64,000 nucleotides of DNA from Candidatus Heimdallarchaeota archaeon (lineage in GTDB: Archaea > Asgardarchaeota > Heimdallarchaeia > Heimdallarchaeales > Heimdallarchaeaceae): the NCBI GenBank assembly GCA_016840095.1, contig JAEOSZ010000006.1:1-64000 (forward strand), read 5' to 3'. Of this stretch, positions 20,938 to 23,485 are shown one piece after another. The notes under the pieces were generated by a model that was given only the letters and a program-made list of their open reading frames with translations, was not told where the DNA came from and made no database searches. Every line of letters begins with the position of its first letter. Position 1 is the first letter of the stretch. Made by a program: the position numbers and the translations under genes.

Positions 20938-22095
20938 TCATTCTGCTTTTTTTTCTCCTTTCTTCTGAAAAATATTCTTTTTACATTTTGGACAACCAGC
21001 TTCCTTCAGCTGTTCAATAGTTACAAATTTGTAATTTTGACCCACTTCTATTTCAATCAAGCAATTTTTGCATTGGTAATATCTTTTTGTAGGTTTTCTT
21101 TCACCTGTATACAAAAAGCCTTCATAGCTGTTTTCAATTAATGGTTTAGCATCAGAAAAAATCTGTAAACGATAGAAATTTGATACTCCACCTAGTTTCT
21201 GGGCTCCTATGTATTCATTAAACCTTGGGTAAATAGCAGTAATTAAACAGTTCATTTTTGACATATTCTTTTGCAAAAGAAGCTGATCATTTGGTGGTTT
21301 GCTTCCAAAAGAAAGATACCCAACACCACCTGTTTTATTATTTGTGAGTTGTATTCCTCTTGAAATAAACAGATTATGTCCATTAATTGTATAAGGTGGA
21401 TCTGTCACAAAACAATCGTACTTGTTCTTATATTCACTTGGAATGGGTTTTCTTAAATCATGTTCAACAAATAAAATATTGGAATTGAGTTCTTGATTTG
21501 CTTTTTCAATAATATCTTGAATTCTAGTATCAATATCAAAAACTGTTATTTTTGATTTTGAACCAGTTAGTAAAGCTAATGCAATGCTGGTCAGATCGCT
21601 ATCTCCCACAAAAGCATAATTTCGGAAAAAGAGATCATAATTATTACTCATGGTAAGAACCCTAATTATACTAGTTTCCGTTGTTGCAAAAGATTGGTCT
21701 ATGACAGTATTAGGGGGACCTCGAAGATCAGTGAATGCTCTAAGTTTTTCGATGGGTTCTTTATAATTTTCAAGTGGGAAGGTAAAACCATTCTTACAAT
21801 TAAGGCACGAAAAAGACTTATTCAAACTCCCAAGCTCTGATAGAGCTTTAGAACCTAATTCGGATATACTTGTTCCTTCGCTCCTCTTTGAGCACCATTT
21901 TATCTTAGCAAATTCATTTCTTATTGCAACACAAATAGGTATAGGAAAACCAATCTCTTTTGAAATATCCATCATTGAAGAGTGAGGATATCTATCAATA
22001 ACCGCGAGAAACCTAATAAGGCCATGTATTCCTTCCTTTAGTCCTACATTGTTTTCAACTTGAGAAAGAGTAGAAATTATGGAATCTCTATCCAT
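20938..22095 (-). CDS. BpsA-like (DUF43, branched-chain polyamine synthase family) SAM-dependent transferase with C-terminal Zn ribbon
   Basis: DQ..AT.ET...R, GDSDLTSIAL (BpsA: GDDDLTSIAL), DID.R, DLRKP.P, TDPPYT, FN.Y; C-terminal CKNC...CPKC. Confidence 0.85.
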   Translation of the reverse strand: MDRDSIISTLSQVENNVGLKEGIHGLIRFLAVIDRYPHSSMMDISKEIGFPIPICVAIRNEFAKIKWCSKRSEGTSISELGSKALSELGSLNKSFSCLNCKNGFTFPLENYKEPIEKLRAFTDLRGPPNTVIDQSFATTETSIIRVLTMSNNYDLFFRNYAFVGDSDLTSIALALLTGSKSKITVFDIDTRIQDIIEKANQELNSNILFVEHDLRKPIPSEYKNKYDCFVTDPPYTINGHNLFISRGIQLTNNKTGGVGYLSFGSKPPNDQLLLQKNMSKMNCLITAIYPRFNEYIGAQKLGGVSNFYRLQIFSDAKPLIENSYEGFLYTGERKPTKRYYQCKNCLIEIEVGQNYKFVTIEQLKEAGCPKCKKNIFQKKGEKKAE

Positions 22096-22216
22096 GAATC
22101 AAAATTCGTATTATATTAAAAAATATGGTGGCTACTGATAAATTCAGTTTTATCATAGAATATCCCAAGCGATAATATTAATTAAAGAGGATTTTTATTA
22201 TAAGTGCAAGAGCAAT

Positions 22217-23485
22217 ATGTTAGATATAATAGACCATTATCCTTACCTTAGTTATGAAGACAAGAAATTACTAATTCAACAGATAGACATTGAATCTTTG
22301 TCTGAGGATAAAAAAACACCTTTTTTCTTATTCCTCCCAAAAAGATTTGAAGATAATGTATTAGAAATAAAAACCAAACTAGGAAAAAGTATTCCAAATC
22401 TATTCATCTCATATGCTGCAAAAGCCAATTATCTTGGTAAAATATTGCAAAAATCGCACAAACTTGGTTTAGGTATTGAGGTTATGTCTCTTTTTGAGTT
22501 AAAACTTGCTGAAAAAGCAGGAATGAGATTGGACGAAGTTATTTTTAATGGTCCTGCAAAAACATCAGAAGAGCTGAATTATGCTATAAGCAACAAAATT
22601 GGTCACTTAAATGTTGAGTCACTTAATGAAATAAAAGAAATAGAAAGCATAGCAGCAAAACATGAAATTGTTCAAAATATCACTGTAAGAATACATCCAA
22701 AATTGAGCGAAGATACTGAAAAAAGACTGTTAATTAAGAAGAATAGTAAATTAGGTATAGACTTCTCAAGAGCTGTTAAATTATTTGAATATGCCAAAAA
22801 AAGTCCACATTTGAATCCTGTGGGAGTTCATACTCATGTTGGAACAAACTTAACTTCTCATGATTTTTATGATGAGTTACTTGAATTTCTTAATGATTAT
22901 ATCCTTGATTTGGAAAGTAAATTAGAAATCTCAATTTCAGAAATCAACTTGGGTGGGGGGTTAGCAAGTAAATCTACCCTGGAAAAGGAAAATTTCCAAA
23001 TAGACAAATTGGGGAAACAAGTATCATCAAAAATAGAGAATATAGCAAACAAAACAATAATCTTCGAGTTAGGAAGATGCCTAATTGAAGATAGTTTCAT
23101 TGCAATTACCAAGGTTTTGAGAACAAAGAAATCTTGGGGAAGGAAATGGGCATTTACTGATATTGGTGCAAATACATTAATCCCAATGAGATATTCGCAT
23201 TACAGTGCGATACCTGCTTTAAACAAAGGAAAAGGACAGTATACTAACATAGGTGGCCCCCTGTGTCTCCCAGTAGATATATTATCTGAGGAAGCAGTTA
23301 ACTTTGAGATAGATGAGAGTGATTTATTAATTGTTCTTAACTGTGGAGCTTATACACTTTCGATGAGCGAACAGTTTGGTTATCCAAGACCTGCAATATA
23401 TCAGTTATCTGAAAAGGGGATTGATTTGATTAAACCAGCAGATGATTTGGAGCAAATGATTAATGACTCATTTCATCTTAATTAG
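22217..23485 (+). CDS. group IV PLP-dependent decarboxylase (LysA/ODC/CANSDC/BtrK superfamily)
   Basis: YAAKAN (PLP lysine), FNGPAK, NVES, H.HVG, NLGGG, E.GR, GPLC, GAY. Confidence 0.88.
   Translation: MLDIIDHYPYLSYEDKKLLIQQIDIESLSEDKKTPFFLFLPKRFEDNVLEIKTKLGKSIPNLFISYAAKANYLGKILQKSHKLGLGIEVMSLFELKLAEKAGMRLDEVIFNGPAKTSEELNYAISNKIGHLNVESLNEIKEIESIAAKHEIVQNITVRIHPKLSEDTEKRLLIKKNSKLGIDFSRAVKLFEYAKKSPHLNPVGVHTHVGTNLTSHDFYDELLEFLNDYILDLESKLEISISEINLGGGLASKSTLEKENFQIDKLGKQVSSKIENIANKTIIFELGRCLIEDSFIAITKVLRTKKSWGRKWAFTDIGANTLIPMRYSHYSAIPALNKGKGQYTNIGGPLCLPVDILSEEAVNFEIDESDLLIVLNCGAYTLSMSEQFGYPRPAIYQLSEKGIDLIKPADDLEQMINDSFHLN

Follow-up and report, generated by a model that had tools for sequence, protein, structure and literature searches.

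A BpsA-family transferase beside a PLP decarboxylase

The stretch of DNA analysed here (the window) comprises 64,000 nucleotides of a Candidatus Heimdallarchaeota genome (positions 1 to 64,000 of contig JAEOSZ010000006.1, assembly GCA_016840095.1). Its source genome, G000 in our sample (window on contig C14), is a 3.44-Mb assembly of 89% completeness and 33% GC. Heimdallarchaeota AB_125 is its closest relative with a name, and its family, Heimdallarchaeaceae, also includes the closed genomes of Ca. Heimdallarchaeum aukensis (G026) and Ca. H. endolithica. In the window a BpsA_C gene, encoding a BpsA-family transferase, and a gene for a type III (alanine-racemase-fold) pyridoxal phosphate (PLP) decarboxylase stand head to head with 121 bp between them (Table 1), an order kept at every Heimdallarchaeaceae locus. 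The transferase has lost Asp159 (Thermococcus kodakarensis BpsA numbering) of its GDDD motif, and among BpsA-family transferases this loss tracks a change of partner gene, from S-adenosylmethionine (SAM) decarboxylase (AdoMetDC) to a type III PLP decarboxylase. An earlier note, made from the letters of this stretch alone, had suggested that the two enzymes aminopropylate an acceptor in two steps from intact SAM.

The transferase, whose translation contains YAFVGDSDLTSIALAL, is built of a winged-helix-like domain at the N-terminus, a Rossmann core and, at the C-terminus, a zinc ribbon. Its sequence matches in the PDB are 2qm3 and 5xnc (E from 1e-32 to 1e-34), and the top Foldseek matches of its AF2 model (predicted local distance difference test score, pLDDT, 94.1) are the BpsA structures 2qm3, 5xnc and 6j27 (E from 1e-17 to 1e-23). 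BpsA is N4-bis(aminopropyl)spermidine synthase (EC 2.5.1.128; T. kodakarensis TK1691, PDB 5XNC; Thermus, 6J27); the transferase shares with it the Pfam domain, the fold, the N-terminal domain and the Rossmann core. The reading of VGDSD with a serine codon in place of GDDD is borne out by translation (codons 21609-21577: GTG GGA GAT AGC GAT CTG ACC AGC): Ser166 is AGC at 21598-21600, two base changes away from an Asp codon. Alignment to the structural reference, T. kodakarensis BpsA (5xnc), places GDSD over G157-D158-D159-D160, so that the middle Asp, Asp159, is the residue replaced. The earlier description of a GDDD aspartate as the catalytic residue is outdated. In T. kodakarensis BpsA, Asp159 and Asp160 form salt bridges to the aminopropyl amine of decarboxylated SAM (dcSAM) and are required for catalysis, the GDDD motif being indispensable, and the acidic C-terminal residues serve as the aminopropyl carrier (2026 review, PMC12979288).

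On the acceptor side, the Asp of DPP and the Tyr of FNEY are conserved as in BpsA, and among the polyamine-site residues of T. kodakarensis BpsA, Asp225 (D232) and Tyr290 (Y295) are kept, Glu259 is aligned to Pro267 and Tyr316 lies beyond the aligned region. DPPY is common to the GDDD relatives and does not discriminate between the two types; it was thus ruled out as a clade marker. Unlike BpsA, the transferase bears GDSD, a proline at the position of Glu259 and a zinc ribbon with lysine-rich residues behind it, which take the place of the acidic aminopropyl-carrier tail of BpsA; the acidic cluster is not present. Its partner is a PLP decarboxylase, and AdoMetDC was not found in its genome.

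G000 also bears a second BpsA_C paralogue of 286 amino acids (L003:1282-2142; contig C122:93219-94004, minus strand). It lacks the N-terminal domain and retains the zinc ribbon, and its motifs are GDMD where others have GDDD and EPPM where others have DPPY. This short paralogue occurs in all Heimdallarchaeaceae genomes and in three sister families without the main enzyme.

Table 1. Features of the transferase-decarboxylase locus (window positions)
Feature	Position	Strand	Remark
GT4 glycosyltransferase, downstream of transferase	17419-18552	-	whole run 17419..20908
GT-C-like membrane glycosyltransferase, downstream of transferase	18561-20225	-	
MBL-fold hydrolase, downstream of transferase	20234-20908	-	
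BpsA-family transferase, 385 aa, GDSD for GDDD	20938..22095	-	PF01861 BpsA_C, E 1.7e-46
Zinc ribbon CxxC...CxxC (C342, C345, C368, C371) and basic tail	20983..21072	-	Cys columns invariant or nearly so
DPPY motif, D232-Y235	21391..21402	-	D232 aligns with T. kodakarensis Asp225, named acceptor-amine residue
G164-D165-S166-D167, codons GGA GAT AGC GAT	21595..21606	-	S166 aligns with T. kodakarensis BpsA Asp159
Divergent AT-rich spacer, 121 bp, between transferase and decarboxylase genes	22096..22216	.	
Type III (alanine-racemase-fold) PLP decarboxylase, 422 aa, 'CLPVD' clade	22217..23485	+	PF02784 and PF00278
G347-P-L-C350-L351-P-V-D354 codons, Leu next after active-site Cys	23255..23278	+	
Small CxxCxxCC protein	23516..24019	+	PF03692; 31 bp 3' of decarboxylase
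GT2, GT4, polysaccharide-deacetylase/ArnD-like protein, GT4, downstream of decarboxylase	24028..28290	+	

Loss of Asp159 and exchange of the partner gene

The GDSD motif is not a chance variant. Among 42 aligned homologues of at least 47% identity, 41 have GDSD and the other has GDGD, and among 75 remoter aligned homologues 74 have GDDD, the single exception being P0057 with GDSD. In 150 representatives drawn from a library of 1.8 billion proteins, GDDD occurs in 132, GDSD in 8, GDGD in 4 and GDND in 4. At the position of Asp159, all 80 of 80 GDDD representatives have Asp, and the clade of the Heimdallarchaeaceae enzyme has Ser or Gly.

Using a 12-sequence alignment as the query and a search pattern that admits D, S or G at this position, we collected 80 loci, one genome per species, and searched every one of them by profile for the decarboxylase and AdoMetDC, with a neighbour limit of 5 kb. 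A PLP decarboxylase lies within 5 kb at all of the 18 loci with a GD[S/G]D transferase, whereas it is found at none of the 62 loci with a GDDD transferase. Conversely, AdoMetDC is fused or near in 0 of the 18 GD[S/G]D loci and in 41 of the 62 GDDD loci (fused at 19, as in Xenorhabdus, and near at 22, as in Bathyarchaeota). Similarly, a sample of 151 Asgard genomes has about 38 GDDD genes with AdoMetDC either fused to them or less than 2 kb away. A decarboxylase orthologue (57-87% identity) is present in 12 of the 13 other Heimdallarchaeaceae genomes of that sample, each time adjoining the transferase; the one genome in which it was missed (G142) is 76% complete. GDDD BpsA-like proteins with a C-terminal AdoMetDC in a single reading frame (460-525 amino acids) are found in the Asgard families f5 and f13 (L026-L038) and in many Xenorhabdus and relatives (L130-L162).

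The linkage recurs in four further arrangements outside Heimdallarchaeaceae. In G025, which belongs to another family, the transferase has GDGD and the decarboxylase is 3.5 kb off with two kelch genes between them. At L076 (GDSD) the two genes overlap on the same strand; at L077, from a high-GC organism (GDGD), they overlap and a GNAT gene follows; and at L079/L080 (GDGD) they are convergent with two YlbF genes between them. No glycosyltransferase neighbours were found at the G025, L076, L077 and L079/L080 loci. The gene downstream of P0266 was considered as a further decarboxylase and was ruled out.

We built quick trees of both proteins (FastTree, local supports only; n = 104 for the transferase). 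In the transferase tree, clade A (support 96) comprises Heimdallarchaeaceae, the G025 type, the L077 type and P0057, and every member has GD[S/G]D. The sister group of clade A (Methanocaldococcus, G123, Bathyarchaeota) has GDDD and is linked to AdoMetDC. In the decarboxylase tree, the same lineages form the 'CLPVD' clade (support 98), which stands apart from LysA and has 'CQPND' (L079) and 'CIPSG' sequences as its sisters. The CLPVD, CQPND and CIPSG sequences are separate from both LysA-like (CE..D) and D-Orn/D-Lys-like (CDGGD) sequences. The transferase and decarboxylase trees thus mirror one another.

The decarboxylase and the polyamine genes of the family

The decarboxylase had been described in the earlier note as a non-LysA enzyme with GPLCLPVD and FELGR. 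Both motifs are present in its translation (GGPLCLPVD and IIFELGR), and CLPVD is conserved in Heimdallarchaeaceae, the G025 type and the L077 type, where LysA-like sequences have CE..D. A Leu after the active-site Cys is also what the earlier note gives for carboxynorspermidine decarboxylase (CLAGD). FELGR does not define the clade: most orthologues retain the canonical FEPGR. LysA is its best match in both sequence and structure, with the PLP lysine, the EPGR-type arginine, the catalytic Cys and the GAY motif in common, and its AF2 model (pLDDT 93.5) has template modelling (TM) scores of 0.86-0.91 to diaminopimelate (DAP) decarboxylases. Nevertheless, it scores 248.7 bits against lysA (TIGR01048), below the equivalog cut-off of 297.9. 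It also falls far below the cut-offs for DokD (158.5 bits), FslC (102.7 bits), SpeA and nspC (TIGR01047; 26.6 bits, cut-off 409). Where DAP decarboxylases have CE(S/T)GD and NDLIRP, the enzyme has CLPVD and NTLIPMRY, so that CE has become CL and NDxxRP has become N(T/S)LIP(M/L)R. In DAP decarboxylase structures, the distal centre of the substrate is contacted by the Glu after the Cys and the Arg of NDxxRP. Neither DapF nor DapB turned up in G000, G003, G025 or the two closed genomes G026 and G074, and G025 holds a separate LysA-scoring gene (437.8 bits; L170:1303-2529, contig C16). Because of the score below the cut-off, the changed DAP-specific residues, the missing DapF and DapB and the separate gene in G025, we conclude from these sequence comparisons that the decarboxylase is distinct from LysA; the mirrored trees likewise count against the LysA reading, which was rejected. 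The LysA-scoring gene of G025 occurs in a 91%-complete genome in which DapF and DapB were not found.

The absence of a SAM decarboxylase gene, previously noted for the window, extends to the genome and beyond: no AdoMetDC (PF02675, speD) was found in 21 Heimdallarchaeaceae genomes, i.e., G000 and 20 relatives, two of them closed. A search for the eukaryote-type SAM decarboxylase (PF01536) gave no match, but its control was silent everywhere, so this search is uninformative. A convincing SpeE was not found in these genomes; weak matches of 29-36 bits are limited to one genus, with none in the closed genomes. The candidate of G000, a protein of 280 amino acids with a methyltransferase fold that weakly resembles polyamine aminopropyltransferase (L167:1084-1923, contig C8; 47 bits, cut-off 260), is restricted to the genus of G000.

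The aspartate-semialdehyde route was considered and rejected. Saccharopine-dehydrogenase homologues are present in five of five genomes tested, but their score of 28.6 bits is far from the 800 set as the cut-off for carboxynorspermidine synthase and no polyamine genes adjoin them, and nspC was found in none of the 151 Asgard genomes. Arginine-decarboxylase-like and arginase-family genes are present and could supply agmatine or putrescine as an acceptor. G026 has two tandem SpeA-like arginine decarboxylase genes (L169:1107-3764 and 4109-5899; about 303-304 bits, cut-off 369), the first of which extends into a KaiC/FlaH-like region to give a frame of 886 amino acids. Deoxyhypusine synthase is present as well, and is found in 143 of the 151 Asgard genomes; of the same genomes, only 55 have AdoMetDC and 14 have the transferase-decarboxylase pair, and in about half of them no gene could be recognised that would provide an aminopropyl or aminobutyl donor.

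How the pair may act and on which acceptor

The pair is probably one module that aminopropylates an amine without dcSAM. The reading that we favour, with moderate confidence, is that the transferase moves the 3-amino-3-carboxypropyl group from intact SAM to an amine and that the decarboxylase then removes the carboxyl group. In the first step, the BpsA-family transferase would take intact SAM at a donor site with Ser or Gly in place of Asp159. This Asp, which holds the donor amine in BpsA, would repel the carboxylate of SAM; its removal would lift the clash, and the Ser or Gly would restore a GxG-like motif I. The aminocarboxypropyl group would be passed to a nitrogen at the conserved DPPY and FNEY site with release of methylthioadenosine. 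In the second step, the PLP decarboxylase would strip the alpha-carboxyl of the adduct and leave an aminopropyl group. The net product would be that of the ancestral AdoMetDC and GDDD transferase, with the order of transfer and decarboxylation reversed. The acceptor, the least certain part, is probably putrescine or agmatine, which would give spermidine by way of carboxyspermidine or carboxyaminopropylagmatine. The proposal of two steps from intact SAM is thus supported by the comparative tests that we ran, because the partner gene is swapped in 18 of 18 against 0 of 62 loci, the linkage recurs in four further arrangements, the decarboxylase is not LysA and no speD was found; the donor, the acceptor and the order of the steps are inferred.

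There are known systems of similar logic. In microcin C synthesis in E. coli, MccD is proposed to transfer a 3-amino-3-carboxypropyl group and the N-terminal domain of MccE, which has the same fold as the decarboxylase, to remove the carboxyl group (PMC8503589, PMC10491745). Both cases have a SAM-binding-type transferase adjoining an alanine-racemase-fold PLP decarboxylase, a likeness of proposed logic. The systems differ in the acceptor, which for MccD/MccE is a phosphoramidate oxygen of a peptidyl-nucleotide, and in the product, which is an antibiotic. MccE joins its decarboxylase to an acetyltransferase, which recalls the decarboxylase-then-GNAT order of L077. The carboxy(nor)spermidine dehydrogenase/decarboxylase routes (CASDH/CASDC, CAPADH/CAPADC) resemble the proposed one in that they need no AdoMetDC and leave the decarboxylation of a carboxylated polyamine to an enzyme of the alanine-racemase fold. 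They differ in taking their carbon unit from aspartate semialdehyde, through reductive amination, and not from SAM, and the scores given above for this decarboxylase against nspC and for the saccharopine-dehydrogenase homologues against carboxynorspermidine synthase set these proteins apart from CASDH/CASDC. Our literature searches turned up neither a BpsA-family aminocarboxypropyl transferase nor a route of this kind.

Several observations weigh against transfer before decarboxylation. Seventeen of the 18 GD[S/G]D loci are of one family, so that the loci amount to only about five independent lineages, and the lineages may share a single origin of the substitution. Within 5 kb of P0242 (GDGD) and of P0249 (GDND), no decarboxylase gene is present. 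No conserved basic residue gained in the clade for the carboxylate was found. The group derived from SAM is L, and the nearest relatives of the decarboxylase (DAP and D-Orn/D-Lys decarboxylases) act on D-centres. Deoxyhypusine synthase, considered as proof of a spermidine need that is met by the pair, was downgraded after the phylum survey to a weak sign of such a role, because most genomes with this enzyme have neither AdoMetDC nor the pair and many genomes manage without either. For MccD/MccE, too, decarboxylation might come before transfer (PMC10491745).

The main rival, which we consider rather unlikely, is that the PLP decarboxylase is a non-homologous stand-in for the pyruvoyl AdoMetDC and converts SAM to dcSAM, which the transferase would use in the ordinary BpsA way. 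The decarboxylase gene does sit precisely at the place that AdoMetDC takes in sister lineages, in genomes where AdoMetDC was not found, and the same alternative order is not excluded for MccD/MccE (PMC10491745). Yet this order leaves unexplained why Asp159, which is present in 80 of 80 dcSAM-linked relatives and required in T. kodakarensis BpsA, is lost in every decarboxylase-linked lineage. We know of no PLP-dependent SAM decarboxylase, although no search aimed at one was made.

It is unlikely that the decarboxylase instead makes the amine acceptor from ornithine, lysine or another amino acid, and that the transferase alkylates this amine with a methyl or aminocarboxypropyl group and no later decarboxylation takes place. 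The Ser or Gly gives a motif I like the GxG of SAM methyltransferases, DPPY is an N-methyltransferase motif (as read from the sequence, with weak HemK and N6-methyltransferase matches), and METTL5-type N-methyltransferases are the structural neighbours of the transferase after BpsA. But DPPY is not new, being common to the AdoMetDC-linked GDDD relatives; separate arginine-decarboxylase-like genes exist; Leu follows the Cys where, according to the earlier note, diamine-forming enzymes have an acidic residue; and this scheme gives no account of why it is specifically AdoMetDC that is replaced.

Equally unlikely is a variant of the two steps in which, in Heimdallarchaeaceae, the flanking GT2, ArnD-like and GT-C genes would provide the acceptor, an amino sugar that is linked to a lipid or lies at the surface, and an aminopropylated glycan would result. 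The pair heads two operon-like runs (MBL/GT-C-like/GT4 and CxxCxxCC/GT2/GT4/ArnD-like/GT4), whose proteins resemble ArnD-type deacetylases and GT-C transferases, and this tight cluster is conserved within Heimdallarchaeaceae down to 48% identity. Its synteny ends at the family boundary, and the pairs of G025, L076, L077 and L079 have no glycosyltransferase genes; L077 and L079 have GNAT and histone-deacetylase-family genes nearby instead. The non-polyamine acceptor that the earlier note had considered is therefore weakened, because the pair stands without glycosylation genes outside Heimdallarchaeaceae. The histone-deacetylase family includes acetylpolyamine amidohydrolases. At L077 (6001-7643), the GNAT acetyltransferase gene overlaps the end of the decarboxylase gene and the histone-deacetylase-family gene lies nearby.

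It is very improbable that the neighbours are unrelated, with the decarboxylase as the LysA of the cell and the transferase as a degenerate BpsA: lysA is indeed the best NCBIfam match and DAP decarboxylases are the closest folds, but the points given above against LysA (its score and altered residues, DapF and DapB not found even in two closed genomes, and the coexisting LysA-scoring gene of G025) are joined by the mirrored trees and the repeated linkage of both proteins.

In this lineage, the module may include the small CxxCxxCC protein as its third member. Orthologues of this protein adjoin the decarboxylase in all Heimdallarchaeaceae loci, and one (L165:4453-4959) lies beside a GDND transferase in divergent orientation. 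The G025 genome and the L076, L077 and L079 loci yielded no orthologue, so a trio with this protein holds for Heimdallarchaeaceae and L165 only and was rejected as a general arrangement. In G148, a weak CxxCxxCC homologue (C198:642-938) and the short BpsA_C paralogue are roughly 1 kb apart. At the far end of the glycosyltransferase run, an exosortase/archaeosortase-like membrane protein gene (PF09721, E 1.5e-10; window 28285-29427) converges on it.

With regard to enzyme evolution, the pair is a case in which the change of one donor-site residue accompanies the exchange of a partner enzyme, and if transfer from intact SAM comes first, transfer and decarboxylation have swapped their order in evolution. 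GDDD versus GD[S/G]D would then be a one-residue annotation marker for PF01861 proteins, all of which are now annotated as the 'bis-aminopropyl spermidine synthase family'. Spermidine is required for hypusine in archaea and eukaryotes, and its synthesis has been described via dcSAM or via aspartate semialdehyde. It is possible, though we regard it as doubtful, that Heimdallarchaeaceae and a few other archaeal lineages have a third spermidine route that is free of both, made of a BpsA-derived enzyme and a LysA-derived decarboxylase. If true, this would be a third solution beside the dcSAM and aspartate-semialdehyde routes, in a lineage that stands near the archaeal ancestor of eukaryotes, and it would bear on the many Asgard genomes that have deoxyhypusine synthase and no recognisable enzyme for an aminopropyl donor.

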